From contig OY780959.1 of NCBI GenBank assembly GCA_963675915.1, forward strand, positions 1,020,001-1,052,000: 32,000 nucleotides of DNA. The letters are read 5' to 3'. The DNA is from Coprobacillaceae bacterium (GTDB lineage: Bacteria > Bacillota_I > Bacilli_A > Erysipelotrichales > Coprobacillaceae). Under the pieces are notes generated by a model. That model saw only the letters and a program-made list of their open reading frames with translations, was not told where the DNA came from and searched no databases. Below, one piece after another: positions 233-24,827 of this stretch. Within the stretch, counting starts at the first letter, position 1, and each line of letters starts with the position of its first letter. The position numbers and the translations under genes were made by a program.

Positions 233-526
233 ATGAATGCTCAAGAGCGTTATGATTATTGGAATGGTCTAGTTAAAAATTGGCGGATTTCCGGGAAATC
301 CATTAGCCGTTGGTGCATGGAAAATGGGATCAACAAGAATTCGTTTTATAAATGGCGTAAGATCATTGATACTGATGAACTCAGCCAACCGGTTAAGTCT
401 GATGGCCGTTTCTTCGCCCCGGTATTGATTGACAATCCCACCAGGAAGATTACAATCACTGTCAACGATGTGGAACTGACATTTGATGAGTCTCTGCTTT
501 GTAAAGTGATTGGGGCTATCAAATGA
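233..526 (+). CDS. tnpA: IS66-family accessory protein TnpA (HTH)
   Basis: 97-aa ORF, first of the IS66 triplet, with a W/K-rich HTH-like segment (ISRWCMENGINKNSFYKWRK). Stop overlaps the next start (ATGA). Confidence 0.8.
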   Translation: MNAQERYDYWNGLVKNWRISGKSISRWCMENGINKNSFYKWRKIIDTDELSQPVKSDGRFFAPVLIDNPTRKITITVNDVELTFDESLLCKVIGAIK

Positions 527-882
527 TTATCAACACTGATGATGTCAAACATATTTATCTTGCCACTGGACATGTCGACATGCGCAAGTCAATCGATGGT
601 TTGTCTTTGATAGTGGCCATGGAGTTTGATTTGGATGTGATGAACGGCAGCTTGTTCATTTTTGTCAACCGGGCTCGCAACAGGATGAAGATTCTTTATT
701 ACGAAAATGGTGGGTTTTGGCTGTTTCTCAAACGGCTTGAAAGCGGAAAGTTCAAGGTTCGTGAAGATGAGAATTCAAACACCAGAGTCATTGATGAAAG
801 ACAGTTTCGCTGGTTGCTCGAGGGCCTTGAAATCGATCAAAAATATGCATTTAAAAACATGGAAAATCGGCTTATTATCTAG
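523..882 (+). CDS. tnpB: IS66-family Orf2 / TnpB
   Basis: 119 aa with the characteristic HIYLATGHVDMRKSIDGLSLIV...FIFVNRARNRMKILYYENGGFWLFLKRLE pattern of IS66 Orf2 proteins. Confidence 0.88.
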   Translation: MIINTDDVKHIYLATGHVDMRKSIDGLSLIVAMEFDLDVMNGSLFIFVNRARNRMKILYYENGGFWLFLKRLESGKFKVREDENSNTRVIDERQFRWLLEGLEIDQKYAFKNMENRLII

Positions 883-914
883 TAACTTGGCCGATTTTTT
901 GGTATAATCTAGAT

Positions 915-2486
915 ATGAAAAATACCGTTAATATCAAGAAAATGTCACGTGAGGAATTAGAAAAATCCTACATGGCTTTACATACAAAAGTAGAACAATT
1001 ATCTCAAGAGAACAGCTGGTACAAGGAACAGGTCAGACTGCAGCAGAAGAAATTGTTTGGTCAATCGTCTGAAAAAGTTCATGTTGATCAGTTGTCTTTG
1101 TTTGATGAGATTGAATTTGAATCAACACCGATCAATGATGAATCAAATATCACCGAAGTAAAATCTCATAAGCGCAAAAAGAAATCAAGAATTATGGATT
1201 TGGATTCCTTGAAGAACACTACGATTGATTATGTTTTGAGTGCTGATGAAAAGGTTTGTCCTAAATGCAATCATGAATTGCATGAGATGTCGAAAAAAGT
1301 TCGCAAAGAACTTATTTTCGTTCCTGCCAAAGTGGAAGTGATTAATCATGTCGAACACATCTACAGCTGCCGCAATTGCGAGAAGAACGACATCGAAGCA
1401 ACCATTATCAAAGCTAATGGACCAACGCCATTGATCAGCGGTAGCATTGCTTCAGCTTCACTGGTGGCAAATATCATCAATGACAAGTATGTCAAATCGT
1501 TGCCGTTATACCGTCAGGAAGTTTCCTATCAAAGAATGAGGATCAATCTGAATCGTCAGAACATGTCAAACTGGCTGATCAGGGTATCAAATAACTACTT
1601 CAAACCATTGATTGACTACATGTATAAACAGCTGATGAAGGCCCAGTATATCAATGCCGATGAGACCAGCGTCCAAGTGCTACATGAACCAGGTAAAGCG
1701 GCATCATCGAAATCATACATGTGGGTCTATATGACTGGCAGAAGCGAAGCCAATCAATACGTACTGTTTAACTACGAGCCAAGCCGCGCCCATAAGCACG
1801 CCGTTAATTACCTTGAAGATTTCAAAGGAGTTTTGATATCAGACGGTTACCAGGCATATGACAAAGTCGAAGGTGTAACTCAGGCAGGTTGTTGGGCTCA
1901 TGCTAGAAGGAAATTCAAAGAAGCTTTGGATCTGGTTCCTAAAAATGTCAATCTTGAGTCTACCGAGACATATAAATGTTTCGCAATGATCAACGAGCTG
2001 TTCGCCATAGAGAGAAAGCACAAAGATTGCGATTATGACAAACTGACCAAAATTCGGCAGGAAAAGTCATTGAAGAAAGTGAATGAATTCTTCAAAAAAA
2101 TCCATGAACTTAAAAAGGTTGCTCTACCTAAATCTCATTTAGGCGAAGCAATCAACTATGCTTACAATCAAGAATCAAAGTTGAGAACATATATTAGTGA
2201 TGGGAGAATAGATATCAGCAACAATGCAGCTGAAAACATCATCAGACCGTTCACTGTCGGCCGCAAGAATTGGCTGTTTATGAATACAGTTAAAGGTGCC
2301 AATAGCAGTTCCTACATTTACAGCTTGGTTGAGTCAGCCAAAATGAACAATCTCAAACCATATGATTATTTCCAGTATATCCTAGACCGTTTGCCGGATC
2401 TGGATATAACTGATGAAAAATCATTGGAAACAGTAATGCCGTGGGCAAAACTGCCAAAAGAACTGTATATCACTAAAAAATCATAG
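915..2486 (+). CDS. tnpC: IS66-family DDE transposase TnpC
   Basis: 523 aa with an N-terminal coiled coil, zinc finger CPKC...CRNC, NADETSVQVL and DGYQAY...AGCWAHARRKF catalytic-core motifs. Confidence 0.92.
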   Translation: MKNTVNIKKMSREELEKSYMALHTKVEQLSQENSWYKEQVRLQQKKLFGQSSEKVHVDQLSLFDEIEFESTPINDESNITEVKSHKRKKKSRIMDLDSLKNTTIDYVLSADEKVCPKCNHELHEMSKKVRKELIFVPAKVEVINHVEHIYSCRNCEKNDIEATIIKANGPTPLISGSIASASLVANIINDKYVKSLPLYRQEVSYQRMRINLNRQNMSNWLIRVSNNYFKPLIDYMYKQLMKAQYINADETSVQVLHEPGKAASSKSYMWVYMTGRSEANQYVLFNYEPSRAHKHAVNYLEDFKGVLISDGYQAYDKVEGVTQAGCWAHARRKFKEALDLVPKNVNLESTETYKCFAMINELFAIERKHKDCDYDKLTKIRQEKSLKKVNEFFKKIHELKKVALPKSHLGEAINYAYNQESKLRTYISDGRIDISNNAAENIIRPFTVGRKNWLFMNTVKGANSSSYIYSLVESAKMNNLKPYDYFQYILDRLPDLDITDEKSLETVMPWAKLPKELYITKKS

Positions 2487-5321: not shown

Positions 5322-6260
5322 CTATTCACCTTGTCTCAAATATTCTAACATCTCTACTATGGTAGCCTCAATAGAATATTCAGGGTGCCAGTTGATATTA
5401 TTCTTCAACTTTGTTATATCCGCTTCAATAACCGGGATATCTATCGGTCTTAACTTATCACGATCAACCGTAATAGTCACTTCCTCTTGTGCATGCTTTA
5501 GAATTGTATCTAAAATTTCATCAAGCGCGATTGCCCTTCCACTTCCTACATTATATATTTCACCGGCATGACCATTTTGAATCAAAAGAACATACGCTTT
5601 TACAATATCACGAATATCGGTGAAGTCACGCCTTGCAGTCAAATTACCAACCTTTATGATTGGATCTTGCACTCCCTTTTCAATATCGACAATTTGTTGA
5701 CAGAAGTTTGCAATTGCAAAAACCGATTCCTGACCCGGACCGATATAGTTAAATGTTCTGGCAGACATAATTTCTAAGCCATAGGCATCACAGTAAATGT
5801 TAGCCAATTTGCTTTGGAAAGCTTTAGTTGCTGCAAAAACGTTACCAGGACGAGTATTGCTCTCTTCGTTAATCGATAAATTGCTTTGTTCAATTTGACC
5901 ATATTCATCTCCAGTACCAACTAAGAGGACTCTTGGTTTATAATCCAGATCTTTTATTGCTTCAAGAACGTTTAATGTTCCTTTGATATTAATATCAACA
6001 GTTTGACTTGGATTTTCCCATGATTGTCCTACTGAAGATTGGCCGGCTAATTGGAAAATCCAGTCCGGTTTGAATTCAGCCAAAACGTTTATTACTTCAC
6101 CTTGATTTAATATATCAAAATTGATAACGTTACTCAATTCACTAGCATAATTAGTATCCTTACTTTTGGTGATAAGGACTTCCATACCACCAAGTTTCAA
6201 GAGTTCTTTTTCCAAAAAAGGTTCTACAAATCCCATTCCACCAAGTATTAGTGATTTCAT
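5322..6260 (-). CDS. Extended-SDR, GDP-6-deoxy-D-mannose reductase (Rmd)-like, with non-canonical catalytic and cofactor motifs
   Basis: 312 aa. LAGQSSVGQSW, VGTGDEYGQ, ARTFNYIGPGQ and VGNLTARRDFTDIRDIV align to Rmd-type GDP-4-keto-6-deoxymannose reductases. The YxxxK is FAATK, and GxxGxxG is GGMGFVE. Confidence 0.65.
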   Translation of the reverse strand: MKSLILGGMGFVEPFLEKELLKLGGMEVLITKSKDTNYASELSNVINFDILNQGEVINVLAEFKPDWIFQLAGQSSVGQSWENPSQTVDINIKGTLNVLEAIKDLDYKPRVLLVGTGDEYGQIEQSNLSINEESNTRPGNVFAATKAFQSKLANIYCDAYGLEIMSARTFNYIGPGQESVFAIANFCQQIVDIEKGVQDPIIKVGNLTARRDFTDIRDIVKAYVLLIQNGHAGEIYNVGSGRAIALDEILDTILKHAQEEVTITVDRDKLRPIDIPVIEADITKLKNNINWHPEYSIEATIVEMLEYLRQGE

Positions 6261-7757: not shown

Positions 7758-8888
<1,131 letters not shown>

Positions 8889-8927: not shown

Positions 8928-11618
8928 TTAAATATCTGCATTGACCATCAATTTCACCAGGTCTTCGAACGAAACATCTCGTTTCCATCCCAGGGTCTTG
9001 GTTGCTTTGGTGTTGTCGCCACGAAGTTCTTTGATACTTGATGGCCGGAAATATTTCGAATCAATACCGACCAGCAGTTTTCCGGTCTGTTTGTCATAAC
9101 CTTTTTCATCAATACCCTTGTCGCGCCACTCGATTTCGATTCCCACTGTCTTGAAGGCCAGTTCCACGAACTCGCGGACACTGTGGGATTCATTGGTTGA
9201 AAGGACATAGTCACCCGGAATTGCTTCCTGGAGCATCAGCCACATTCCTGCCACATAATCCCCGGCAAAGCCCCAGTCTCTTTTGGAATCCAGGTCCCCC
9301 AGAGTCAGCTTGTCCTGACGGCCGTTATAGATGTCGGCTACCGCTTTGGTGATTTTACGGGTCACATATTTGCTGTCGCGTCGTGGTGATTCATGATTGA
9401 ACATGATTCCATTGCAGGCGAAGATATTATATGACTTGCGGTACATCACCGTAGTCCAATAGGCATTAAGTTTCGAAATTCCGTATGGTGAATTCGGCGC
9501 GAAAGCTGTCGTTTCACTTTGAGGTACGGTTTCCAGATTGTCACCATACATGACACATGATGAAGCTTGGAAATATTTGGCATTCAGTTTCGATTTTTGG
9601 ATTGCATCGAGAATCCGGATCGCCCCCAATGAGTTGACATCATTGGTGTATTCGGGAATCTCGTAAGAAGTCGAAACGAACGACTGTGAAGCCAGGTTGT
9701 AAACTTCATCCGGCTTTATCTGTTCAATCAGACGGTTGACATTGGTTCCATCCGTCAGATCCCCGTAATGAAGATAGAACGATTTGTTTTCGATGCCTTC
9801 CAGGATTTCCCCTTCAAGATCATTGTCGTTGTTCGAGAAACGACGCATCATCCCATGGACTTCATAGCCCTTGTTAAGCAAGAAGCGTGAAAGATAGAAA
9901 CCATCCTGACCGCTCACTCCGGTGATGAAGGCTACTTTCTTTTCTTCCTTGGTTTCAATGATGCTCATCAGCTCGGCTTCAAGCTGTTTTTGTTTATTGT
10001 CGGCTTCATATTTGGTTGCCCCGATGACACAATAGTAGAACTTGCATTTCGGCTCGGTTCCACTCGGTCTTACCGCAAACCACGATCCGTCTTCAAGATA
10101 ATATTTCAAGACGTTTGATTTGGGCAGGATTTTATATGAATGACGGACGAAGACATTTTCGTTGGCGAAGTCTTCGACTTTGACCACTTTGTATCCGGCA
10201 ATCCGGTTAAGCCGCTGCTTGCGCAGGTTGTTGACCACAATTCCGGCATTTTTCAGTTTCTTCGACTTGTTGACATCGATATAGTAACCGTATTTTTCAT
10301 AGATATCATGCAAGGCATCGACCAGGTCTTTGCCTTGGGATGCATAATAGTTGGCCACTTCGGCTAAAACCATACAAGACTGCACGGCATCCTTGTCTTT
10401 TGAGATTCCACTAAACAGGTAACCATATGATTCCTCGTATCCGAAGACAAAGTCGAACTCATTAGTTCTTTCATATTCGCAGATCAACTCCCCGATGAAT
10501 TTGAATCCAGTCAGGGTGGTCTGGTTTTTTATGCCATAATTTTGGGCGATCACTTTCCCCAAACTGCTGGTAACGACCGTATCGAAAATGATGGTGTCAT
10601 TAGTCAGTCTACATTGTTTTTCCAAGGTCCCCAAAATGTACTCAAGCAGGATTGCTCCAGTCTGATTTCCGGTCAGAAAAACAAATTCACCTTCATGCTC
10701 CACCGCGATTCCCAACCGGTCACAGTCAGGATCGGTGGCAATCACATACTTGGCATTGTTCTTTTTAGCCTGCGCGATTCCCATATCGAAAGCATGGATG
10801 TTTTCCGGATTCGGATTGGGCGTGTTGACAAACTCGGTTGATGGGAAACATTGTTCCTCGACGATTTCATAATTGACTCCGCGACGGTCGAACATGGTCG
10901 TTACCGGCACGAATGAAGTCCCATGTTGAGATGAGAAAACAATCTTGGTTGCCTGATAATCGACCTCATTGTATTTGACCTTGTCAAGCAGTTGATAGTA
11001 CTTGTTGTCGATCTCTTCACCGATATACTCGATGTATTGGAGTTCTTTTTCCTTTGAGGCCATTTCAACATCAAAACCATCTTCAACCATTGTGATGTAT
11101 TCATAAATCCGGTTGGTTTCATGGACCACACATTGGTTTCCATAATGGTTGTAGACCTTGAATCCGTTATATTCCTTGGTATTGTGGCTGGCAGTGATGA
11201 CCACTCCCGCAAAAGCCTCTAACTCCTGAATCGCAAATGACAATTCCGGAGTCGGTCGCAAATCATCGAACAGGTAGACCTTGATTTCATGATTGGCCAA
11301 CACCGATGCCACGATTTTCGCGAATTCCTTAGAATGACGGCGGTTGTCATAGGCGATAACCGCTGATTTGTTATGATCGCCGACATAGGCATTGATATAG
11401 TTAGCCAGACCTTCAGCCAGTTTTCTGATGGTGAAGACATTCAGCTTCGATGGTCCCACTCCCATGATTTCGCGGACTCCACCGGTACCGAATTTCAATT
11501 TGGATCCGAAGATCTCCTTGATTTCGATCTCGCTTAAAGATTCGATTTTTGCTTTCAATTCATCTGTCAAAGGAGCTTTGAGCCACTTTTCGTATACGTC
11601 CATGTATTCCAAAATCAC
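8928..11618 (-). CDS. Fusion protein: phosphomannomutase/phosphoglucomutase (aa 1-559) :: GDP-mannose-4,6-dehydratase-like SDR (aa 560-896)
   Basis: A single 896-codon ORF. The N-terminal part carries TASHNTKEYNGFKV, DPDCDRLG, GYEESYGY and RPSGTEPKCKFY. The C-terminal part (8931..9941) starts KKVAFITGVSGQDGFYLSRFLLNKGYEVHGMMRR and aligns over its whole length to Gmd. The GTG start at 11618 has SD AGAGGT and overlaps the upstream stop (GTGA). Confidence 0.85.
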   Translation of the reverse strand: MILEYMDVYEKWLKAPLTDELKAKIESLSEIEIKEIFGSKLKFGTGGVREIMGVGPSKLNVFTIRKLAEGLANYINAYVGDHNKSAVIAYDNRRHSKEFAKIVASVLANHEIKVYLFDDLRPTPELSFAIQELEAFAGVVITASHNTKEYNGFKVYNHYGNQCVVHETNRIYEYITMVEDGFDVEMASKEKELQYIEYIGEEIDNKYYQLLDKVKYNEVDYQATKIVFSSQHGTSFVPVTTMFDRRGVNYEIVEEQCFPSTEFVNTPNPNPENIHAFDMGIAQAKKNNAKYVIATDPDCDRLGIAVEHEGEFVFLTGNQTGAILLEYILGTLEKQCRLTNDTIIFDTVVTSSLGKVIAQNYGIKNQTTLTGFKFIGELICEYERTNEFDFVFGYEESYGYLFSGISKDKDAVQSCMVLAEVANYYASQGKDLVDALHDIYEKYGYYIDVNKSKKLKNAGIVVNNLRKQRLNRIAGYKVVKVEDFANENVFVRHSYKILPKSNVLKYYLEDGSWFAVRPSGTEPKCKFYYCVIGATKYEADNKQKQLEAELMSIIETKEEKKVAFITGVSGQDGFYLSRFLLNKGYEVHGMMRRFSNNDNDLEGEILEGIENKSFYLHYGDLTDGTNVNRLIEQIKPDEVYNLASQSFVSTSYEIPEYTNDVNSLGAIRILDAIQKSKLNAKYFQASSCVMYGDNLETVPQSETTAFAPNSPYGISKLNAYWTTVMYRKSYNIFACNGIMFNHESPRRDSKYVTRKITKAVADIYNGRQDKLTLGDLDSKRDWGFAGDYVAGMWLMLQEAIPGDYVLSTNESHSVREFVELAFKTVGIEIEWRDKGIDEKGYDKQTGKLLVGIDSKYFRPSSIKELRGDNTKATKTLGWKRDVSFEDLVKLMVNADI

Positions 11619-12769
11619 TTACCTCTACTTATATTTAATTTGGTGTGATGCAAAATTATCAGTTTAGATATAACATAAATATAACGTGTAGTAAAATCTA
11701 TAATATGCCTAATGACTAGTGATAATGGTGTAAGTAAAACAAAAACCCATACCAAGATTATTATGTCAATTTTTGGCCAGTATGCAATAAACTGAACTAT
11801 CGGTCCACTTACAAAGAAAATTGCATGTAAGAACCAATATTCAGTAGAAAATTTCCCTAAAAAAACTGACAACCTAACAATTATAATAGGTTTATATATA
11901 TTTTTAAAACACCATATTAATAAAACGACAATTGGGGCCTATATGTAGTCAAGGTTAAAATTATAAACCGACTTGAAGATACCTCTACAAGCAAAAACAC
12001 ATAAAAAAATAGTTAATCCCACTGGAATAAATAAAATCTTTCTTTTTATAAAATAATCATGAGTTGGCCGCATAATACTTACAATTAAATCATATTTTGT
12101 TAAAATATAACCGCTTAATACGATTGGTAGAAATTCTAAATATTCCGACAAATAAGATGTAAATATTCCAGAACTAAATTGAATTATCAGAAATCTAAGC
12201 ATAAAAACAACGACCGTAAGAATAAACAATTCAAATAATGCTATTTGTGTCTTGAATACTGAATTCAATTTATCAGCCAAAATATGTGAAAGTGCACCAA
12301 TGATATAATCAATTAGCGGAAAAGTAAATACTATTTGCAAGTAAAAACGAAGATACCATGCGACCGGAATATAATCAGTTCTCAACACGAAAAAATTAAG
12401 TACAAAGTCTCTAATATCAAAATACAAAGTATTAGTTAAATACATGATTGGAATGTAAATAAAAATCAGAACAAACCAATATGTTGACATTAAAGGGATT
12501 AATCGTTTTAATGAATGTTTGTAAGCATTTCTCGTTTTAACCGAATACATGTAAAACATTGCTATACCAGTTAAAAATGCAAAAACAGCAACACAAATCT
12601 TTGAAAAGCCACCAAAATATGAAGAAATGGTTCTCATTCCAATTGAAAGACCAAAATATTTATTTTGATCGTATATCCATTCTGGCATTCCATAAACATG
12701 ATTGCTTACTAACATAATTATCGTAAGGCCTTTTATAAAAAGTGTATCATTCTTTGTAAAACTAACCAT
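11615..12769 (-). pseudogene. Acyltransferase family 3 gene interrupted by a single in-frame TAG
   Basis: ORFs 11939..12769 and 11615..11872 are in the same frame. Every codon between them is sense except TAG at 11939..11941. The joined product is 384 aa, with IKGLTIIMLVSNH at the N-terminus and a typical hydrophobic C-terminus. Confidence 0.8.
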
Positions 12770-12864: not shown

Positions 12865-13908
12865 TTATCTATTTCTTAACTCATGGACCTGAGCCAATTG
12901 TTCTCTTGTTCCCACTACGATCATATCTTCAGCCTCGATGAAGAAGGCATTTTCCATTCCCAAAAAGACGATTTCTTTTTTGGTCGAGAAAATGATATTG
13001 TTCTTGGCATTGTCGACGTAGAACTTCCCTTTGGTGATATTGCCGTTTTCATCTTTAGGCAGATATCTTTCCAAGGCTGCCCAGGTTCCCACATCATCCC
13101 AACCGAATGATCCTGGGATCACGTTGATGGTGTTGATTTTTTCCATGATGGCATAATCGATTGAAATCGATTCGCAGTTTGGATAAATGTCAAACAAACG
13201 GTCTTTGAACCCGGCTGATGATACTGATCCGATTTCGCTTAATTTTGCATAAGTGTCCGCCATATGGAGTTGAGCCAGTTTTTCAACATAGTTGACATTC
13301 CACATGAAGATTCCGGCATTCCAGAAATAACCACCTTCTTCAAGGTACTCTTTGGCCGTATCCAAATCAGGCTTTTCGACAAAACGTTCAACCTGTTTGA
13401 TTGAATAACCGCTGACTTCAGTCTGGTTGGCAGTCTGTTTGATGTAACCATATCCGGTTTCCGGACGGGTTGGTTCGATTCCGATTGTCACAACCGATTC
13501 TTGATGCTCATTAAGGAAAGCATCCCCGGCTTTGAGAACGTTGCAGAACTCTTCGACATCCTGAATCAAAGCATCAGAAGGAAGAACCACCGAGTTCCCA
13601 CCAGGGAACTTGGCATTGACCTGTATCGCCCCAAATACCACACAAGGCGCCGTATTGCGGCCAACTGGTTCTACCAGAATATTTTCCTCAGGCAAGTCCG
13701 GCAGTTGTTCTTTGGTAAGATTGACATATTTGTCACCGGTAGCGATGAAAATCTGTTCAATCGGCATTATTTTCAAAAGACGGTCAACCGTCATCTGGAT
13801 CATTGTTTTTTCGCCAATCAGATTCAAAAACTGTTTGGGATGTTCATCGGTCGACAAAGGAAAGAAACGAGTTCCTCTTCCACCGGCCATAATTAAAGCG
13901 CTTAACAT
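12865..13908 (-). CDS. manC: Mannose-1-phosphate guanylyltransferase (short form, no PMI domain)
   Basis: LIMAGGRGTRFFPLS nucleotidyltransferase loop, GRNTAPC, VLPSDALI, ERFVEKPD. 347 aa. SD AGAGGAGA. Confidence 0.9.
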   Translation of the reverse strand: MLSALIMAGGRGTRFFPLSTDEHPKQFLNLIGEKTMIQMTVDRLLKIMPIEQIFIATGDKYVNLTKEQLPDLPEENILVEPVGRNTAPCVVFGAIQVNAKFPGGNSVVLPSDALIQDVEEFCNVLKAGDAFLNEHQESVVTIGIEPTRPETGYGYIKQTANQTEVSGYSIKQVERFVEKPDLDTAKEYLEEGGYFWNAGIFMWNVNYVEKLAQLHMADTYAKLSEIGSVSSAGFKDRLFDIYPNCESISIDYAIMEKINTINVIPGSFGWDDVGTWAALERYLPKDENGNITKGKFYVDNAKNNIIFSTKKEIVFLGMENAFFIEAEDMIVVGTREQLAQVHELRNR

Positions 13909-13926: not shown

Positions 13927-14415
13927 TTATAAATAATCTTCTGACATATTTATTTCATTTAAGAACTTTGCATTCTTATCTTTATCAGATATGATTATGC
14001 TTATCAAATCAATATGCCAATCCATACCTATTTCAAGATCCTCTTCAAGCGACACATATCCATGTGCAAAACCACGAGGTATATACATGATTTTCTTATT
14101 CTCAAAAGATAAAATTTCTCCATGCCACTGCTTGTATGTGGAACTGTCTGGATTAACATCTAACGCAATAGAATACAAACCATCTGCCAAATATGATATC
14201 ATTTTTGCCTGAGCATATATACCTTCTTGATAATGTAAACCTCTTAAAGTATTAATTTTTTTGCTGTAGCCCTGATTAATTTGTCTAATCTCAAATTCAA
14301 CAGCCAAATCCCTTAGAACTCAATTATCAAATGGAATCGATAGACATCCTCTATAATCTTCTATAATGTCAGGAATATAAATTTTAACCTTAGTATTGCT
14401 TGGTTTTATATGCAT
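13927..14415 (-). pseudogene. RmlC-like cupin (sugar-nucleotide 3,5-epimerase family) with an in-frame TGA
   Basis: ATG at 14415 (SD GGAG) gives 31 codons (MHIKPSNTKVKIYIPDIIEDYRGCLSIPFDN). TGA follows at 14320..14322, then the same frame continues through LRGLHYQ...QAKMI...YIPRGFAHGY...ISDKD. Confidence 0.75.
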
Positions 14416-14590: not shown

Positions 14591-15532
14591 TTATCTTTCA
14601 GCTCTCACTTTACTGTTCAAGAAATCTTGATATGCTAGTCTAACACCCTCTTCAAGGTCGACTTTATGTTCCCATCCAAGATCTCTACTTTTAGAAACAT
14701 CTAGCAATTTGCGCGGTGTTCCATTTGGTTTTGCAGTATCCCATTTAATCTCACCTTCAAAACCTGTTACTCTAGAAACTAAGTCAGTTAATTGCTTAAT
14801 CGATAATTCTCTACCAGTTCCAGCATTAACAGTTTCATTTCCACTATAGTTATCCATTAGGAATATACAAAAATCTGCTAAGTCATCAACATATAAGAAC
14901 TCACGAAGAGCCGAACCATCACCCCAACATATTACTTCATCCAGTCCATTCTTTTTTGCCTCATGAAAACGGCGAATTAATGCCGGTAATACATGACTAT
15001 GAGTTGGATGATAGTTGTCATTCGGACCATATAAATTTGTAGGCATAACACTTATAAAATCTGTTCCGTATTGACGGTTCAAATATTCGCAATACTTTAA
15101 TCCGCTGATTTTCGCCAATGCATAAGCTTCATTAGTTTTCTCAAGTTCACTTGTCAGCAGATACTCTTCTTTCATTGGTTGTGGTGCCATTCTAGGATAA
15201 ATGCATGAAGAACCCAAAAATAGCAATTTTTTACACCCATGTCTCCAAGCAGCATTTATCACATTCATTTGCATCATCATATTCTCGTACATAAAATCAG
15301 CCAATGATTGAGAATTAGCCATTATCCCACCTACTTTTGCTGCCGCTAAAAAAACATATTCTGGTTTTTCTTTTTCAAAAAAATCTTCAACTAAATCTTG
15401 ACGAATCAAATCCAATTCTTTGCTTGTTCTAGTTATTATATTAGTATACCCTTGTTTTAATAATTCTCTACAAATGGCGCTACCAACCATCCCTCGATGA
15501 CCTGCAACATAAATTTTTGAATCTTTTTTCAT
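14591..15532 (-). CDS. fcl: GDP-L-fucose synthase (GDP-4-keto-6-deoxy-D-mannose 3,5-epimerase/4-reductase)
   Basis: IYVAGHRGMVGSAI, LAAAKVGGI, LFLGSSCIYP, YALAKISG, NLYGPNDN. 313 aa. SD AGGGGGA. Confidence 0.92.
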   Translation of the reverse strand: MKKDSKIYVAGHRGMVGSAICRELLKQGYTNIITRTSKELDLIRQDLVEDFFEKEKPEYVFLAAAKVGGIMANSQSLADFMYENMMMQMNVINAAWRHGCKKLLFLGSSCIYPRMAPQPMKEEYLLTSELEKTNEAYALAKISGLKYCEYLNRQYGTDFISVMPTNLYGPNDNYHPTHSHVLPALIRRFHEAKKNGLDEVICWGDGSALREFLYVDDLADFCIFLMDNYSGNETVNAGTGRELSIKQLTDLVSRVTGFEGEIKWDTAKPNGTPRKLLDVSKSRDLGWEHKVDLEEGVRLAYQDFLNSKVRAER

Positions 15533-15686: not shown

Positions 15687-17045
15687 GATAGTATAAAATA
15701 TTTTGTGTAAATTGAATTTCAGCTTTTAAGTAGCAAAAATGGTATAACCCCTGTAAAATTAGTTCTGCGAAAACAATCTACGGAAGGATTATACCCATGA
15801 ACTATTTTACATCATCTCTACTTAGAAGTCTAATCTCAAATGACAATAATTTGGAAGCTTTTGAACAAGTCGTTTCAGAACTTTTCAGAAGCGAACTTGA
15901 AAAAGCTATTAATGATATTCTTAAATCTGAACTGACCGTATTTCTTGATTACGAAAAATATGACAGATCAGAAAATTCCAACTCTAGAAACGGATTCTAT
16001 GAGCGTGATTACAACACCAAGTATGGTGTGTTGAATCTCAAGATTCCCCGTGATCGACACGGTGAATTTAATTCGCCTTTGGTACCGAAATATCAACGTA
16101 ACGATCTCGCTACTACTAACACAGTAATTGATTTGTTCAATACTGGAATGACCAATAGTGACATCGTCAAAACTGTTGAATCTATCTACGGGAAACAGTA
16201 TTCAAAACAGACAGTATCAAATATTACCAAAGAAGTGATCACCCATATCGACGCTTTCAAGAAACGCCCTTTAAACAAGCAATATGCGGTAATTTATACT
16301 GATGCTACGGTTATTCCATTACGTCGTGATACAGTGGCTAAAGAAGCTATTCACATTGCCATTGGGATTACTTTGGAAGGAACAAAAGAAATATTGGGAT
16401 ACTCAATCGCTCCTACAGAATCTGCCACCATATGGCAAGAGTTGCTTGAAGATTTCAAGCAACGAGGAATAGAAGAAGTCGCCTTGTTTTGTACTGATGG
16501 GCTTTCTGGTGTGGAAGCAGTCATTGAAGACACTTTCCCAATGGCAAGGATCCAACGTTGCATCGTGCACGTTTCTCGGAACATAGTTTCCAAAGTAAGA
16601 GTTAAAGATCGAAGCGAAATTGCTAAAGATTTTAAAGTTGTTTATAACTCTAATGATGCTGAAACAGCCCAATCAGAATTGGAATCCTTTATTGACAAAT
16701 GGGGAAAGAAATATCCTCGGGTAGCAAAATCATTAGAAAACAATTCCAATTTATTCACTTTTTATCTGTATCCGGCATCTGTTAGAAGAAGTATCTATAC
16801 AACCAATTTGATTGAAGGGTACAATAAACAACTGAAACGGAAAATCAAAACCAAAGAACAATTTCCTAATGAACAGGCGGCCGAGAAATATATAGTTTCT
16901 CAATTTGAACAGTATAACCAAAAGTTCATGAGCCGCGTTCACAAAGGATTCAAAGGCATCACTTACGAAGAGTGGTTCCTGTTAGAAAAGTAAATCATTG
17001 ATGAGAACTAATTTTACAAATCTACACAAAAATATTGACGCTACC
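15687..17045 (+). mobile_element. IS256-family insertion sequence (1359 bp)
   Basis: Imperfect 26-bp IRs: GATAGTATAAAATATTTTGTGTAAAT versus the reverse complement GGTAGCGTCAATATTTTTGTGTAGAT. Perfect 8-bp TSD TGAATTAA at 15679..15686 and 17046..17053. Confidence 0.88.
15797..16993 (+). CDS. IS256-family (mutator-type) transposase
   Basis: 398 aa with RNGFYERDYNTKYGVLNLKIPRDRHGEF, IYTDAT, FCTDGLSG, QRCIVH, TTNLIEGYNKQLKR. Confidence 0.93.
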   Translation: MNYFTSSLLRSLISNDNNLEAFEQVVSELFRSELEKAINDILKSELTVFLDYEKYDRSENSNSRNGFYERDYNTKYGVLNLKIPRDRHGEFNSPLVPKYQRNDLATTNTVIDLFNTGMTNSDIVKTVESIYGKQYSKQTVSNITKEVITHIDAFKKRPLNKQYAVIYTDATVIPLRRDTVAKEAIHIAIGITLEGTKEILGYSIAPTESATIWQELLEDFKQRGIEEVALFCTDGLSGVEAVIEDTFPMARIQRCIVHVSRNIVSKVRVKDRSEIAKDFKVVYNSNDAETAQSELESFIDKWGKKYPRVAKSLENNSNLFTFYLYPASVRRSIYTTNLIEGYNKQLKRKIKTKEQFPNEQAAEKYIVSQFEQYNQKFMSRVHKGFKGITYEEWFLLEK

Positions 17046-17419: not shown

Positions 17420-18481
17420 TTATTGATTTGGATTTAGAAATACTTCATTTGGCAATGTCCAATTCCTGATATTTCTACCATTCCATCTTTCGGGATGGGC
17501 TGATTTTGCAGCTTCATAAACTTTACGACGATTATCCATGACTAACTCGCCTTCACCATTATGACGTTGAGCAGGTGTGAGAAAATTGATTCCGCTGTGA
17601 TGATGTTCATATCGATACCAGTTAACGAAGTTGGCGCACCACAAACGCGCATCATCAAGGCTTCGGAATCCTTTGGGTTGATAATTTGGTCTGAACTTTA
17701 ATGTCTTGAACAGACTCTCGGCATACGGGTTGTTATTGCTGACTCTTGGCCTGCTATTTGATGGCGTGATGCCGAGTTGATATAGCGTCGCAAGCATCGT
17801 AGCTCCCTTCATCGGACTCCCATTATCCGAGTGTAATACAAGCGGATCAGTTGATAATACACGTTGTGACAGTGCAGTTCGTCTGATGAGTTCGCTGGCA
17901 TGTTCAGCTGATTCTTCTTCCCATACTTCCCAACCAACAATATCACGGCTGTACAAGTCTGATATCAGGTAAAGATAGTAGAATTTTCCCTTGATTGGGC
18001 CGTTGAGATAAGTAATATCCCACATCCATATTTGATTGGGCGCAACCGCCACATGAGTAGAAATTGGCCGCTTCTTCGGTTCTTCACTACGTCCTCGATG
18101 GTTTTGCATCTTTTGTTCTTTCAACACTCTGTAAAACGTTGATTCTGAAGCAAGATATTTGCCTTGGTCGGCTAGAGCGGGAACTATCTCACAAGGAGGC
18201 ATACTGGCGAATTTAGGCTTATTTACTGTATCAATGATTTCATTACGTTCATCTGTTGTAAGCTTGTTGGCTGGATCCGGTCTCTTGGCTGTCGGTCGTA
18301 AATCTTCGATGGTACCAATGTTTTTCAACTGCTTCATCCAGCGGTAATACGTACGTTCCGTAATCCCTAATTCTTTGCAGGCATTGAAGAGTTTGGCACC
18401 ACTTTCCACAGCAGCTTCGATTAGTGCAATGGCTTTAATGCGATCTGAGGTACTAATCATTCGTCCTCGGGATCCCCCCAA
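17420..18481 (-). CDS. IS3-family OrfB (DDE integrase-like), expressed by -1 frameshift from OrfA
   Basis: HTH followed by WMWDITYL, HSDNGSPM, NNPYAESLFKTLK (DDE). It overlaps orfA in the -1 frame. Confidence 0.88.
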   Translation of the reverse strand: MGGSRGRMISTSDRIKAIALIEAAVESGAKLFNACKELGITERTYYRWMKQLKNIGTIEDLRPTAKRPDPANKLTTDERNEIIDTVNKPKFASMPPCEIVPALADQGKYLASESTFYRVLKEQKMQNHRGRSEEPKKRPISTHVAVAPNQIWMWDITYLNGPIKGKFYYLYLISDLYSRDIVGWEVWEEESAEHASELIRRTALSQRVLSTDPLVLHSDNGSPMKGATMLATLYQLGITPSNSRPRVSNNNPYAESLFKTLKFRPNYQPKGFRSLDDARLWCANFVNWYRYEHHHSGINFLTPAQRHNGEGELVMDNRRKVYEAAKSAHPERWNGRNIRNWTLPNEVFLNPNQ

Positions 18482-18951
18482 ATCGCATTTGCCTTTTTTC
18501 TTAAAACTAGAAGTGCAGCAGTTTCGGCCAGAGCTTTTTCCTTTCTAGTGAGTTCCTTCTCTAATCGTTTGTTTTCTTTTTCAGTAACTTTGAGTTCTTT
18601 GTTTAAGCGTGCAGCTTCTTGAGCAACACCACCATTGGCGTTCATGCAAGCGTCTTTCCAGGCTAGAATTTGCTCAACGTAGAGACCTTTTTTACGCGCA
18701 TACTCAGCTAGTTCAGTTTCATTCATGCTTGAAGTTTCAACAACTATTAGAAATTTATCCTGGGTACTCCATTTATCTGAAACAGCATCATTTCCAGGAG
18801 CAGCAACACCTCCAGCACGAGCTTTATTTCTCCAATTTCGAAGGGTCTGTTCAGAGATGCCTTCTTCTTTTGAAATCTCACTGATTGCTTCATTGTTGGG
18901 AGGAAGCATCCTCCGGGTTAGTGAATCTTTGAATTCTTTACTATATTTCAT
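18457..18951 (-). CDS. IS3-family OrfA (HTH + leucine zipper)
   Basis: MKYSKEFKDSLTRRMLPPNNEAISEISKEEGISEQTLRNWRNK... plus a coiled coil. ATG at 18951. Its SD has been displaced 1.5 kb away by the IS110 insertion. Confidence 0.85.
   Translation of the reverse strand: MKYSKEFKDSLTRRMLPPNNEAISEISKEEGISEQTLRNWRNKARAGGVAAPGNDAVSDKWSTQDKFLIVVETSSMNETELAEYARKKGLYVEQILAWKDACMNANGGVAQEAARLNKELKVTEKENKRLEKELTRKEKALAETAALLVLRKKANAIWGDPEDE
18493..18499 (-). promoter_or_regulatory. Programmed -1 frameshift heptamer A AAA AAG
   Basis: The orfA frame reads AGA AAA AAG GCA and orfB is open in the -1 frame. This is the classical IS3-family slippery site. Confidence 0.75.
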
Positions 18952-18961
18952 GTTATCAGCT

Positions 18962-19228
18962 TGTATGATTAACTTGTACACAAAATAGATACAAGTATCA
19001 TACTTTTCCTTTCATAATTATTCTTGATATTTTATGATGAAATAGACATGAGTACATTTTAATGTATACTGTAGCGTGACTACTTCCTGGAGAGTAAATC
19101 CATCGGTCTATTTTATCTTTAATTAGTTGGATAAGTCTTTGAACTTTTATTTCTAGCAAGTGTATGAGAATAGGTCGCCGATGGTTTCTATCTTGTGTCA
19201 AAACATTTTAGAAAGGCGGTCTTTTTTC
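18962..19228 (+). ncRNA. Candidate IS110 bridge (seeker) RNA region in the non-coding left end
   Basis: Established for IS110/IS621-type elements: a structured guide RNA is encoded 5' of the recombinase. Here 267 nt are non-coding. There is a long-range stem CCATCGG (19100..19106) with CCGATGG (19178..19184), and a local hairpin around 19052..19070. The exact RNA ends are unknown. Confidence 0.45.
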
Positions 19229-20395
19229 ATGGCAAAAAAACTTGTAGGCATTGATATTGCCAAAAACTTACATTTCGCCTCGATTGTCGATTCAAACGGT
19301 GAGGTTTTTGAAAAAGCTTTTCCTTTTGAAAACAACAAGGCAGGTTTCGAACTTCTTATGTCTAAAGTCAATGACTTTGACAAAGAAAACATCGTATTTG
19401 GAATGGAGTCAACAGCTCACTATTCCAATAATTTAAGTAATTTTTTATTGATCAACGGATTTCGGGTCGTTATCATCAACCCTTTGCAGACCCACGCTCT
19501 TAGAAAAACCCAAATGCGTGATGCCAAGAATGATAAAATCGATTCTATGCTTATCTGTATGGCTCTCACCTTGAATCTTGGTAATGAAATATCTTTGAAC
19601 GATACTCTGAATGAATTGTATGATCTATGCAAATCATACCATGATGTTACAAAATTGAATGCAAGAGCAAAAATTCAAATGATTACTTATCTTGATCAAA
19701 ATTTCCCTGAATATCACAAAGAATTTGGCAAAAGCACTTTTGGAAAAGCATCTTTTGCATTGCTCAAAGAATATCCGACTCCTGAGAAAATAAATAAAGT
19801 TCGAATTGACAAGCTGACTAACATTCTTCACAACAATTCACGCGGCCGGTATGGCCGAGAAAAAGCGCTTAGACTCAAACAACTAGCGCAAAACTCTGTT
19901 GGCATACAGAGAGATTCCTTGGCTGTAAGAATGCAGTTAACTATTCTTCAAATCGAACTTTACGATAATCAGAAGAAGGAACTCAAGGACCAGATACGTT
20001 GTATAGTGGAATCTCTTGATTCACCTATCATGACAATCCCTGGCATGGGATATGTACAGGCGGGAATGATTCTTTCTTCTATTAAAGATATTAACTTATT
20101 TTCTCATCCAAGTAAAGTACTGGCATATGCCGGTTTGGATCCAAGAGTTAGACAATCAGGGAAATTCAATGCCTCATCGACAAGAATGTCCAAGCGCGGA
20201 AATTCAATGCTTAGATATGCTCTAATATGGGCTGCGAACAATGTTCAAAAAAATGCCAAAACATTTAATCTGTATTACACGAAAAAAATTAACGAAGGTA
20301 AAAGCCACTATAACGCACTGGGTCATACAGCCAATAAATTGGTAAGGGTAATCTACAAACTATTAACAACCAATCAAGAATACCAAAATATTTAA
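19229..20395 (+). CDS. IS110-family DEDD recombinase/transposase
   Basis: MAKKLVGIDIAKNLHF, FGMESTAHY, INPLQT, DKIDS (RuvC-like DEDD) plus the C-terminal IPGMGYVQAGMILS...RMSKRGNSMLRYAL domain. The start is moved to 19229 from the ORF-track 19160. Confidence 0.9.
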   Translation: MAKKLVGIDIAKNLHFASIVDSNGEVFEKAFPFENNKAGFELLMSKVNDFDKENIVFGMESTAHYSNNLSNFLLINGFRVVIINPLQTHALRKTQMRDAKNDKIDSMLICMALTLNLGNEISLNDTLNELYDLCKSYHDVTKLNARAKIQMITYLDQNFPEYHKEFGKSTFGKASFALLKEYPTPEKINKVRIDKLTNILHNNSRGRYGREKALRLKQLAQNSVGIQRDSLAVRMQLTILQIELYDNQKKELKDQIRCIVESLDSPIMTIPGMGYVQAGMILSSIKDINLFSHPSKVLAYAGLDPRVRQSGKFNASSTRMSKRGNSMLRYALIWAANNVQKNAKTFNLYYTKKINEGKSHYNALGHTANKLVRVIYKLLTTNQEYQNI

Positions 20396-21868: not shown

Positions 21869-22177
21869 TTAGACGATTATCCCTGACTCGTTTAATTTGT
21901 AGATGGCTTGTGATATGGCTTCGCTGCTGATTGGATCTATCTCGCGCAATAGAGCTGACTTGTTCCAAAATTTGTCTTTGAAATATGATAGTTCCAGTCC
22001 CAGCTTCATCAACGGGATGCAAATCCAGTTTCCTTTGGCTGATTTACCTACTATCACTTCGATTTCATTGCCGTCATATCTTAGCTGGAATTCACACTTA
22101 TCTGGGTTTTGCGAGACTATTACTATCTCGTTGGCCCATGTTTTTTCATCATAGTTGCAGAAGTATTCGATTATCAA
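21869..22177 (-). CDS. Transposon ORF4, 102-aa protein of unknown function
   Basis: Conserved between the copies (1 aa difference). The TTG start overlaps the ATPase stop (TTGA), with GAGGT 7 nt upstream. I recognise no motif. Confidence 0.6.
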   Translation of the reverse strand: MIIEYFCNYDEKTWANEIVIVSQNPDKCEFQLRYDGNEIEVIVGKSAKGNWICIPLMKLGLELSYFKDKFWNKSALLREIDPISSEAISQAIYKLNESGIIV

Positions 22178-22977
22178 ATTACTACCTCTTCGATTGTTTC
22201 TAGGATTAAATCGGAATCAATTACTTCGATTTTTCTGATTGCTCCGATAAACATTGCCCGGTCGCATATCCGATCAATAACCCGACAGGTGCCGTTGGAT
22301 GCATTGATGATTGCTTCAATGGCATTGTCGTTGAACACTTCTTGAATTGTTTTTCCGCCTTGGAGCTTGTCTTTGATATAAGCAAGACTTTCAGTTTTGT
22401 TTAACGGCTCCAGTTTGTAATTGATAATCATTCGCTGACGCAGTGGTTCATGAGCGGTCAATTTAAGGTTCCTGGTTATTGTCGGCAATCCGACCATCAA
22501 GACTACCGCATGATCCTTGGAATCCATATCAAAATTGAAGATCATCTTCAAATCATTAAGAATGGCGTTATTCATGTAATTACATTCATCAAAGATAAAC
22601 ACCGGGGTAATCCTTTTTTCGTAAATCAACTGGTTTATGGCTGATTGGATCTCCCTGAACAGATCATTCTTTCGATACCGAGGAGTCAAATCCAGCGACT
22701 CAGCCAGTTGCATATAGAATTCCTTGACTGTAAGGGTCGACATTGACAAATAAATTATCTTGTAAGCTGATTTGGGGAGTGTTTTGATATAGTTCCTGAT
22801 CATGGTTGTTTTGCCATGTCCAGGTTCACCGACTATTAGTCCGAAACCTTTGATTTCAAAAAGGCTGTTAAGGCGTACTTTCAATTCCTGGTATTCACTT
22901 GTTTCAATAAATAAATTCTTTGAGTTCTTGATAAACGGATTGAATTCCAATCCGTATCTGGTCCAATATTTTTCCAT
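22174..22977 (-). CDS. TniB/ExeA-like AAA+ ATPase (transposition helper)
   Basis: YWTRYGLEFNPF, Walker A GEPGHGKTT, Walker B VFIFDECN, MVGLPTI...LRQRM and SNGTCRVIDRICDRA are typical of TniB/ExeA (AAA_22) proteins. The ATG overlaps the transposase stop (TAATG). Confidence 0.8.
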   Translation of the reverse strand: MEKYWTRYGLEFNPFIKNSKNLFIETSEYQELKVRLNSLFEIKGFGLIVGEPGHGKTTMIRNYIKTLPKSAYKIIYLSMSTLTVKEFYMQLAESLDLTPRYRKNDLFREIQSAINQLIYEKRITPVFIFDECNYMNNAILNDLKMIFNFDMDSKDHAVVLMVGLPTITRNLKLTAHEPLRQRMIINYKLEPLNKTESLAYIKDKLQGGKTIQEVFNDNAIEAIINASNGTCRVIDRICDRAMFIGAIRKIEVIDSDLILETIEEVVI

Positions 22978-24224
22978 TAATCTTCTCCTCCGCATAATTT
23001 TGGCTGCACTCGTTTTACTTTTGAATTAGCGTTTTTATCAAGTAGGTGAATCCGTTCCAGTTCGCCGGTATTCTTGTTAACTATATAGACGTTTTCCAAG
23101 TCCGGAGTATATCGGAACATATGCCTTTCACCAGAATAGATATAATCAATCTCGTATTCCCGATTATCTATTTTGATTACCGAATCAGTACTGACAGACC
23201 GCTCTACTTCGAACAGGAAAGTATTGTCGATAAAGTCATCATCAAGCCTTTTGATCAGATTGCTTTCCTGAAAAAAACGTTGATGAGGTGTCAATCCATT
23301 CAAAGACGAATGCACCTTGTTGTTGTAATCATTGATGAACTGGCTTAAATCCTGCTTCAAACCTTCTAGATTGTTTGTGTAATCTTTTATGTTTATTTGG
23401 GCGAAGAACTGATCTTTAATCGTCCGAAACACCCGCTCAATTTTTGATTTTCCTTCCGGCGAGTACGGTTTGCAGTAGCTGATGGTTGAATTAATCCTTG
23501 CTGCAATCATCTTGATCTGGTGATTTCGATAATTGGAGCCGTTGTCAAACCTGAACATCTCAGGAATTCCGTATTTGGTGACCGCACTTTTCATAGTATC
23601 CATCAAATTGACTGTGTTGTCATTCAAATACAAATCAAGATGGACGATCATCCTTGAAGCATCATCAATCAGGGCAATCATATAAGTTCGGTTTTTCTTG
23701 CCATTAATGGTTATGTAAGGACCGACCGAACTGTCACCAGCCCAGTTCATATTGATATGGGGCACTTCGTAGCGGCGCATGTCTTTCTTGTTTGATAGAC
23801 GCAATTCCGACTTTATCTGATTGACACATCGATTAACGGTTGATAGCGAAACATCAGTTTTCTTGATGATTCCCTTTTCAATCAACTTGCCGTAAATTAC
23901 AGTTGCCGGCAATCTAGGATAGGTTGTCTTATAATATTTGATTGTTTCAACGATGTCATCATCCAGTCTTCTTGACTTGCCACAATCACTTCGCTTTTGA
24001 GGAATCAATCCATCGAAGCCTTTCTCTTCGTAAGCAGCAATCCACCTGGAGATGGTACTGCTTGAGACAGTGAAATCACGGTTGTCGAAACTCTTATAGA
24101 CTTTCTTGGTAGCTTCCGTAATCGCCTGATTCTTAGACCATGCAGCATCGTAATTTCCGGTAATGATGTCATGAATGATCCGATGGCGCATCAACGCTAC
24201 GTATTCTTGTTCTTTTTTATCCAT
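22977..24224 (-). CDS. DDE transposase of the TnsB/TniA/MuA type (rve core + Mu-transposase-like C-terminal barrel)
   Basis: 415 aa with N-terminal HTHs. Candidate DDE residues lie in NWAGDSS, FRFDNGSNY and PYSPEGKSKIERVFRTIK. The C-terminal RSVSTDSVIKIDNREYEI...GERHMFRYTPDLENVYIV resembles the Mu/TniA beta-barrel. Confidence 0.82.
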   Translation of the reverse strand: MDKKEQEYVALMRHRIIHDIITGNYDAAWSKNQAITEATKKVYKSFDNRDFTVSSSTISRWIAAYEEKGFDGLIPQKRSDCGKSRRLDDDIVETIKYYKTTYPRLPATVIYGKLIEKGIIKKTDVSLSTVNRCVNQIKSELRLSNKKDMRRYEVPHINMNWAGDSSVGPYITINGKKNRTYMIALIDDASRMIVHLDLYLNDNTVNLMDTMKSAVTKYGIPEMFRFDNGSNYRNHQIKMIAARINSTISYCKPYSPEGKSKIERVFRTIKDQFFAQINIKDYTNNLEGLKQDLSQFINDYNNKVHSSLNGLTPHQRFFQESNLIKRLDDDFIDNTFLFEVERSVSTDSVIKIDNREYEIDYIYSGERHMFRYTPDLENVYIVNKNTGELERIHLLDKNANSKVKRVQPKLCGGED

Positions 24225-24272
24225 ATAATACCTCCGTCACCCACTATATACTAATAGAATCGATTATTTAAC

Positions 24273-24827
24273 TCATCCTATGTGGTTGATGGTATACAGG
24301 ATATTTATGGTATTTCTACATTGCATGAACTGCATCAAATAATTTGAAAAACAACTTTCAACAAGTTGGTTAATATCATTTGATTCAATTCTCAACGACA
24401 TCAAACGTTGCTGCCAAACATTGATATACCTGCTCACAACATTATAAATTTCACACTCAGACATATAGGGATTTCGATCAAGAATGGCTTTTAATAGTTT
24501 CTGATTATTTTTATGTATGGAAATCTCAACTTGAACAGCCAACGGGATACTTGAATATGGAACCAAACATGAAAGAAGAATTGCGTGGGTTCTGCCACAA
24601 TCCTTACATCTTAGCCGCATTATTCTCAAATTAAAAAAGCCAAAAGGCAGTTTCACCCTTCGGTTATAATAACCATGAATTATGAAATTGCCCTGGCAGT
24701 CACCAGCGCAACTCAAGGAAAAACGATTGATATTGGAAACCAATTCATTATAATAGGCCTGGAGTTTGGCCCGCGAATCAATCTTCATCAATTTATTATT
24801 GATTTTTACTCCGTGATACGTTATCAT
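24273..24827 (-). CDS. Transposon ORF1, 184-aa Cys4 zinc-ribbon protein (resembles what I recall as DUF6431; unverified)
   Basis: CxxxC...HGYYNRRVKLPFGFF.LRIMRLRCKDCGRTHAILLSCLVPYSS. The start is set at the MITYH shared with copy 2; the ORF-track extension to 24941 covers the upstream hairpin. Confidence 0.65.
   Translation of the reverse strand: MITYHGVKINNKLMKIDSRAKLQAYYNELVSNINRFSLSCAGDCQGNFIIHGYYNRRVKLPFGFFNLRIMRLRCKDCGRTHAILLSCLVPYSSIPLAVQVEISIHKNNQKLLKAILDRNPYMSECEIYNVVSRYINVWQQRLMSLRIESNDINQLVESCFSNYLMQFMQCRNTINILYTINHIG

Follow-up and report, generated by a model that had tools for sequence, protein, structure and literature searches.

The window examined in this work is a 32,000-nucleotide stretch of the genome of a Coprobacillaceae bacterium (assembly GCA_963675915.1, contig OY780959.1, positions 1,020,001 to 1,052,000), numbered below from its first letter, and our interest is in one gene that it carries, in which an alpha-D-phosphohexomutase and a domain derived from Gmd (the 4,6-dehydratase of GDP-mannose) are joined in a single reading frame. 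A sequence-only reading of this DNA had described an uninterrupted frame of 896 codons, and the listing of open reading frames (ORFs) agrees, giving a single frame at 8928..11618 that encodes 896 amino acids (aa) from a GTG start; translation of the same interval from the plus strand is full of stops, which places the ORF on the minus strand. The fusion gene and its parts are as follows.

8928..11618, minus strand: fusion ORF, 896 codons from GTG, stop codon at 8928-8930
9954..11618, minus strand: alpha-D-phosphohexomutase half, residues 1-555, PgcA/PGM2-like type (Pfam, motif check)
11154..11195, minus strand: phosphoserine loop TASHNTKEYNGFKV, residues 142-155, with Ser144 (motif check)
9942..9953, minus strand: junction or linker, residues 556-559, the K-K-E-E region (homologue ends, structure model)
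8931..9941, minus strand: Gmd-derived domain of the extended SDR (short-chain dehydrogenase/reductase) type, residues 560-896 (Pfam, TIGR01472)
9816..9920, minus strand: NADP-binding elements GVSGQDG (567-573) and GMMRR (589-593), kept (motif check)
9552..9563, minus strand: active-site 'yellow wall' S686-S687-C688-V689, which replaces S-T-S-E of Gmd (alignment)
9471..9485, minus strand: SDR dyad Y712-G-I-S-K716, kept (motif check)

The true start of the fusion is probably not the GTG but the TTG at 11612 (codon 3), giving a protein of 894 aa (P0392); homologues begin at this codon, which lies 4 nt past the stop of an upstream acyltransferase frame and 8 nt past the sequence AGAGG. The G+C content of the gene is 44.9% as compared with 36.6% for the whole window, much of which consists of AT-rich insertion sequences (IS) and acyltransferase sequence.

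The four-domain architecture of the mutase half is complete, with Pfam matches to PGM_PMM_I (4e-38), II (3e-17), III (2e-16) and IV (7e-07) over residues 41-529. In addition to the phosphoserine loop it contains the metal loop DPDCDRLG (residues 296-303), the sugar loop GYEESYGY (393-400) and the phosphate loop RPSGTEPKCKFY (517-528), and a motif check located every motif quoted in the sequence-only reading. All four catalytic loops match those of the 118 closest stand-alone homologues with the exception of a single Pro147 to Thr replacement (TASHNT, where TASHNP is usual), and the half as a whole deviates at 11 of 120 near-invariant columns. Judged by these residues the mutase half looks fully competent and is presumably active as ManB, converting Man-6-P to Man-1-P, because manC adjoins the fusion in every locus, and a preference for mannose phosphates over glucose phosphates is likewise presumed from this adjacency.

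Most stand-alone PGM homologues end at positions equivalent to fusion residues 553-557 (mode 555, with a shorter subset ending at 532-537) and the start of stand-alone Gmds corresponds to residue 559, so that the linker between the halves comprises only ∼3 residues. Such a length is what would be left if two adjacent genes had lost the stop codon, spacer and start codon that lay between them, and the loss of a stop/start pair that had been suggested for this junction is therefore compatible with what is found. There is no ATG, GTG or TTG at the junction, which rules out an internal translation start. An AlphaFold2 (AF2) model of the full-length protein contains two confident domains (mean predicted local distance difference test score, pLDDT, of 89) separated by a junction with pLDDT <50, which is thus modelled as a flexible hinge; with this low-confidence hinge and a predicted template modelling score (pTM) of 0.64 the model is uninformative on how the domains pack.

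The C-terminal domain opens with KKVAFITGVSGQDG from residue 560 and is matched by Pfam GDP_Man_Dehyd at residues 564-891 (6e-123) over the entire profile (1-332 of 332). As claimed in the sequence-only reading, it aligns end to end with the stand-alone Gmd that is encoded 138 nt downstream (337 aa compared with the product of 7761..8789, 51% identity, E 5e-122), and it matches human GMD with E 2e-109 and, far more weakly, the reductase RMD of PDB entry 2PK3 (E 4e-28). Its score against the NCBIfam gmd equivalog TIGR01472 is 465 bits, above the cut-off of 415, so that automatic annotation will name the domain Gmd despite the missing catalytic Glu that is described below; indeed, the NCBI name for two of the orthologues is 'GDP-mannose 4,6-dehydratase'. 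The domain forms a long branch among the clostridial-type Gmds in a neighbour-joining tree, with ∼60% identity to those of the Clostridium perfringens type and to the other members of the clade, which are ∼85% identical among themselves. With 51% identity to the neighbouring gmd as compared with ∼60% to the clostridial-type enzymes, and with this placement in the tree, the domain is not a recent copy of its neighbour, and a recent tandem duplication of that gene was rejected as its origin. The last ∼22 residues of clostridial-type Gmds are absent from it.

The residues at the active site are of particular interest. The fingerprint of GMD has been given as [ST]SExnYx3K, with a single catalytic Glu, and that of GalE as only [ST]xnYx3K (PMC8987622, Table 1), and dehydration by GMD involves no extra catalytic residue other than this Glu (PMC8987622, GMD mechanism section). 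In the fusion the dehydration Glu is Val689 and the Ser next to it is Cys688, both invariant in all of the fusion orthologues examined, so that the wall reads S-C-V in 8/8 of the fusion proteins listed, as opposed to T-S-E in 125/125 stand-alone Gmds; one further Gmd-domain sequence, a Gmd-DegT aminotransferase fusion, reads SSE. The wall of the fusion thus contains no Glu, Asp or Lys, but one Cys. The catalytic triad (S687, Y712, K716) is kept, the change from Thr to Ser being conservative. GVSGQDG, a Wierenga motif of GxxGxxG type, is invariant in the fusions, and GMMRR supplies the GxxRR motif. The substrate Arg is also kept, in NHESPRR at 741-747, although the next residues are D-S-K-Y in place of G-E-x-F.

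Changes are not confined to the wall. Six features typical of GMDs have been given, in which Glu (feature v) abstracts the C5 proton and the RR loop (Arg...Arg, ∼10 residues) contacts the neighbouring monomer and its cofactor (PMC3584063); measured against these, the C-terminal domain has GxxGxxG, GxxRR, the triad and the substrate Arg, while Glu is lost and the RR loop is altered. The loop reads RRFSNNDNDL, differs from the Gmd consensus at three columns that are 98-99% conserved in 124 Gmds (R601L, D603G, L605I), and is modelled by AF2 with pLDDT <50. More broadly, taking as near-invariant those columns with a conservation of at least 97% among 124 stand-alone Gmds, a reference set dominated by clostridial sequences, 35 of 171 differ in the fusions, and at 32 of these the same residue is present in all three fusion sequences compared. 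Eight of the 35 (659, 666, 667, 715, 718, 722, 725 and 728) lie in the two long helices of the domain, residues 655-676 and 711-730 in the AF2 model, which we take to be the extended-SDR dimer interface.

In order to establish how rare the architecture is, 1.84 billion representative proteins were searched with phmmer. Among the best 150 matches of this one search, on which the architecture census rests, there is a single other two-domain protein, a fragment of 423 aa that is 83% identical and belongs to the same clade; a combination of PGM_PMM_I-IV with GDP_Man_Dehyd was not seen outside the clade among these 150. Two fusion loci were found among 504 relatives when one genome per species was scanned, and a scan of JGI metagenome contigs with mutase-specific search patterns returned only stand-alone mutases and no fusion. 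Our literature searches found neither a ManB-Gmd fusion nor a Gmd pseudoenzyme described, in agreement with the earlier statement that no characterised ManB-Gmd fusion was known. Other fusions of hexose-nucleotide pathways do occur among the representatives: PGM-PMI (P0214, 847 aa), PMI-Gmd (P0210, 640 aa), Gmd-DegT aminotransferase (P0270, 741 aa, with an S-S-E wall), UDPGP-PGM (P0132, 1002 aa) and a Gmd with an unassigned N-terminal extension of 245 aa (P0244, 603 aa). The three of these that contain Gmd keep the Glu, since their Gmd domains fall within the T-S-E and S-S-E counts given above.

The fusion is genuine and under strong purifying selection in both halves. The 2,625,387-bp contig that encodes the protein of the window, identical to P0392, also encodes a paralogue, P0001, with 97% identity, so that the source genome contains two fusion paralogues, together with two near-identical stand-alone gmd proteins (P0405, P0406). 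Full-length orthologues are present in a related 2.57-Mb genome (P0391, locus L163; like P0001, 97% identical to the window protein), on the chromosome of a Coprobacillaceae metagenome-assembled genome (MAG; L003, 84% identity), in Erysipelotrichaceae MAGs and Logan assemblies (L001, L002, L164 and L165, ∼83% identity) and on a 156-kb contig (L162), which together make up three or more diverged lineages within Erysipelotrichaceae/Coprobacillaceae (83-97% identity). The frame at the junction is kept in all orthologues aligned. In a simple Nei-Gojobori calculation, applied here to comparisons in which the synonymous divergence (dS) is saturated (1.4-2.0, window versus L001-L003), the ratio of non-synonymous to synonymous divergence (dN/dS) lies between 0.059 and 0.068 in the mutase half and between 0.055 and 0.069 in the Gmd-like half. 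Against L163, which is orthologous to the second copy, the window has dS 0.49 and dN/dS of 0.044 and 0.012 for the mutase and Gmd-like halves, respectively, and for the ±30 codons around the junction dN/dS is 0.13 (window versus L003; dS is saturated in the other two comparisons). Because the open frame is conserved across lineages with saturated dS, a frameshift or one-nucleotide assembly error of the kind that had been considered for the junction is excluded, comparative conservation and dN/dS both speaking for an authentic fusion.

The genes that surround the fusion also bear on its interpretation.

12865..13908, minus strand: manC (mannose-1-phosphate guanylyltransferase), upstream of the fusion (Pfam/NCBIfam)
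7761..8789, minus strand: canonical stand-alone gmd, 343 aa, T-S-E intact (TIGR01472, 479 bits)
5322..6260, minus strand: rmd-like GDP-4-keto-6-deoxy-D-mannose reductase homologue (best PDB match 2PK3, E 8e-69)
14591..15532, minus strand: fcl-like GDP-L-fucose synthase (NF047922, 470 bits, just below the cut-off of 500)
11615..12769, minus strand: Acyl_transf_3 frame, 385 codons, inserted between manC and the fusion
13927..14307, minus strand: fragment of rmlC (dTDP-4-dehydrorhamnose 3,5-epimerase), 126 aa, profile 37-125 of 168, between fcl and manC

That manC is a separate upstream gene, as noted previously, is borne out by its position. In each of the five related contexts the fusion follows manC immediately, with a spacing of 14-23 nt, and in the window the acyltransferase frame has been inserted between the two. 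On the other side 138 nt separate the fusion stop from the ATG of the stand-alone gmd, and a promoter and terminator scan found no terminator-like site between them, with counts that did not exceed those of shuffled controls.

The canonical order, seen in L003 with L167, in L164, in L165 with L166 and in L163 as far as retrieved, starts with a family 4 glycosyltransferase (GT4), an unknown gene, rmlA, rmlC, rmlB and rmlD; continues with manC, the fusion, a family 2 glycosyltransferase (GT2), Bac_transf, two GT4s, wzm, wzt (with Wzt_C) and a small ORF; and then with three GT4s, an 822-aa protein, a GT2, gmd (343 aa), rmd-like (313 aa) and LCP and CpsBCD-type genes. The window and L162 hold a condensed, IS-flanked version of manC, fusion, gmd and rmd-like, to which the window adds fcl and three Acyl_transf_3 genes; L162 and L164 form a similar pair of island and canonical cluster (93.6% identity, dS 0.79). 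Canonical gmd and rmd-like genes are thus in the same cluster as the fusion in four of the five contexts examined for them (L003/L167, L165/L166, L162 and the window), the cluster of the fifth, L163, having been retrieved only up to a part that precedes the expected gmd/rmd region. An impression from ±10 kb flanks that the canonical cluster has no gmd was overturned, both genes being located at its distal end.

A number of further observations concern the island itself, which, in contrast to the canonical cluster, is devoid of glycosyltransferases and of an exporter. The fcl-like gene was not seen in the canonical clusters. In the rmd-like gene of the window the catalytic Tyr of YxxxK is Phe (NVFAATK), and this copy may for that reason be inactive or altered; the 57%-identical orthologue at L167 has Tyr (NIYAATK). 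The acyltransferase frame has an in-frame stop at codon 277 that divides it into ORFs of 276 and 85 aa, and is probably a pseudogene or the result of a sequencing error, while the rmlC fragment seems to be left over from the rmlABCD block found ahead of manC in the canonical cluster. Insertion sequences flank the island at 523..2486, 15797..16993, 17420..18981, 19160..20395 and 29164..30719 and are of several types (IS66 TnpB with transposase, IS256/Mutator, two IS3-like elements and IS110). There is in addition an inverted repeat, 21869..24698 and 25888..28717, with arms of 2,830 nt that are 97% complementary and 1,189 nt apart; both arms have genes for a DUF6431 protein, an rve-family transposase (415 aa), an AAA_22 ATPase (273 aa) and a DUF6618 protein, and would seem to represent a single mobile element present twice, in opposite orientations.

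The sequence-only reading had taken the fusion to link the first step of the pathway to the third. The first part of that proposal is supported, in that the mutase half is full length and presumably ManB; the assignment of the C-terminal domain to the third step is not supported, T-S-E having been replaced by S-C-V. Because the single Glu for the C5/C6 proton transfers is gone, the domain is probably not the dehydratase of the pathway, and since four of five contexts have a canonical gmd in the cluster of the fusion a second dehydratase would be redundant. From residues and gene order we tentatively read the protein as an active ManB fused to a dehydration-incompetent, Gmd-derived NADP(H) domain that would be redox-only, performing the C4 half-reaction, and we give this reading a little less than an even chance. 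The setting is a gene cluster for GDP-6-deoxyhexose or cell-wall polysaccharide, in which a clostridial-type Gmd was joined, end to start and with a linker of only a few residues, behind the mutase. The added domain then evolved fast, with fixation of S-C-V, remodelling of the RR loop and of the two long helices and loss of the C-terminal tail, and dehydration would fall to the separate canonical Gmd. It may still bind NADP(H) and GDP-hexose and perform only the transfer of hydride at C4, in the most economical version as a reduction of GDP-4-keto-6-deoxy-D-mannose and in an alternative version as a GalE-like C4 epimerisation of GDP-hexose. Some bacterial GMDs have been reported to have 4-keto-reductase activity, the requirement for Glu not being addressed there (PMC3584063), and retention of such a side activity with loss of dehydration would amount to subfunctionalisation after a second gmd became available. 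Fusion to ManB would provide a fixed stoichiometry and would co-localise the first enzyme of the pathway with a late one.

Several points weigh against this redox-only interpretation. With an rmd-like gene already in the cluster, the need for another reductase is not evident, except where it would have the opposite stereochemistry or act on a second sugar; the co-occurrence of gmd and rmd, for its part, is established in only four of the five contexts. In GMDs the NADP is a tightly bound prosthetic group, whereas a net reductase needs to exchange its cofactor. A module for binding or regulation would account just as well for the substitutions in the RR loop and helices and for the very low dN/dS. 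Retention of Lys and Tyr may reflect no more than a role in ligand binding, and an unconventional dehydration with the help of the Cys is conceivable in principle.

In the best of the competing explanations, a possible although rather doubtful one, the domain is a non-catalytic pseudoenzyme derived from Gmd that binds NADP(H) and/or a GDP-sugar and acts in cis as a sensor for the mutase, or as a tether. Sensing could be of the feedback or feed-forward kind, with GDP-mannose or the GDP-6-deoxyhexose end product as signal, while as a tether the domain might hold ManB to Gmd, Rmd or ManC by way of its remodelled oligomer interface. The loss of the catalytic Glu and of the C-terminal tail, the concentration of at least 11 of the 35 deviating positions in the RR loop (601, 603, 605) or the two long helices, and the presence of a canonical gmd alongside the fusion in four of five contexts would all be expected of such a module, as would a dN/dS below that of the mutase half (0.012 versus 0.044, window versus L163), and a regulator that acts in cis provides a direct reason for keeping the halves fused. 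Against this, lineages between which dS is saturated all share Ser-Tyr-Lys, GxxGxxG, GxxRR and the substrate Arg without variation, whereas sensor SDRs usually lose the catalytic Tyr, and no precedent was found in the literature searched. Nor is hetero-oligomerisation obviously expected, as the domain derives from another lineage of Gmd (60% identity to the clostridial type) than the resident gmd (51% identity).

A truly bifunctional ManB-Gmd, dehydrating GDP-mannose by means of unconventional residues such as Cys688, is in our view unlikely. The domain is full length with an intact triad, its score of 465 bits clears the TIGR01472 cut-off of 415, and the database name of its orthologues is that of the dehydratase. 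There is, moreover, a precedent for Cys at the same position of the wall in the 5,6-dehydratase TunA (motif T-C-E), where it is the catalytic acid (PMC8987622, Table 1). TunA, however, still has its Glu, while in every fusion orthologue the acid/base Glu that is kept in 125/125 stand-alone Gmds is Val; 35 of 171 invariant positions are changed, and the canonical gmd of the same cluster (four of five contexts) would make a second dehydratase redundant. Finally, that two genes were merged by a one-nucleotide error of sequencing or assembly, or by a pseudogenising read-through of recent date, is exceedingly improbable, for although the window is IS-rich with decayed genes (the acyltransferase frame with its stop, the rmlC fragment, the Tyr to Phe change of the rmd-like gene), an identical junction and open frame recur in independent assemblies, in at least three diverged lineages and in two paralogues of one genome, at saturated synonymous divergence and a dN/dS of about 0.06.

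What emerges is a long-maintained natural fusion of two well-known enzyme families, known from one small clade of gut Erysipelotrichales, and neither its architecture nor an S-C-V wall on a Gmd scaffold was found described in the literature searched. It is conceivable, at somewhat less than an even chance, that the S-C-V domain represents an undescribed functional class, be it a new enzyme of GDP-hexose C4 redox chemistry or a pseudoenzyme that senses GDP-sugar or NADP(H) and controls phosphomannomutase. The former would mean a reductase with distinct stereochemistry or a 4-epimerase on a dehydratase scaffold, and rare-sugar biocatalysis would stand to gain from a new GDP-sugar reductase or epimerase; the latter would place under control a phosphomannomutase that is the first committed enzyme of the pathway and would be, to our knowledge, the first example of a pathway enzyme recycled as a cis-regulator of phosphomannomutase. 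In either form the automatic annotation 'GDP-mannose 4,6-dehydratase' would be wrong, and database names of this kind are probably misleading for the fusions in any event. A Gmd scaffold that is devoid of the dehydration Glu and yet strongly selected offers a test case for change of function in nucleotide-sugar SDRs (NS-SDRs), as well as for their annotation by 'fingerprint', and has a bearing on the surface-polysaccharide chemistry of poorly studied gut bacteria.

It is worthwhile to compare the fusion with systems that are known. PMI-GMP (TIGR01479), PGM-PMI, PMI-Gmd and Gmd-aminotransferase proteins are likewise fusions within one pathway, some of them of non-consecutive steps, but none pairs PGM_PMM I-IV with GDP_Man_Dehyd. 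With the Firmicute mutases of PgcA/PGM2 type the N-terminal half shares its four domains and four catalytic loops, its identity to stand-alone phospho-sugar mutases from Erysipelotrichaceae and Clostridia being 44-52%; it differs from them in carrying a C-terminal Gmd-like domain, in reading TASHNT instead of TASHNP and in adjoining manC in a polysaccharide cluster, where it is presumably specialised as ManB.

The C-terminal domain has in common with GDP-mannose 4,6-dehydratase the extended-SDR fold, GxxGxxG, GxxRR, the Ser/Thr-Tyr-Lys triad and the Arg of HESPRR, and departs from it in the replacement of Glu by Val and of the preceding Ser by Cys, in the terminal Arg of the RR loop, which is Leu, in eight changed helix positions, in a tail shorter by ∼22 residues and in the fused mutase. 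We do not file it under this family because the residue on which the catalysis of the family turns is the one that has been lost. Its catalytic inventory, if the Cys on the wall is set aside, would be limited to the triad as in the GalE-type NS-SDRs (PMC8987622, Table 1), to which its sequence similarity is weak, the score against TIGR01179 being 56 bits where the cut-off is 262, and from which it differs in that both its scaffold and its GDP-type binding residues are those of Gmd. In its proposed chemistry, redox on the product of Gmd, the domain would resemble RMD (PDB 2PK3) and the bifunctional GMDs (PMC3584063), although to the former it is only distantly related and a separate RMD homologue is present in the cluster.

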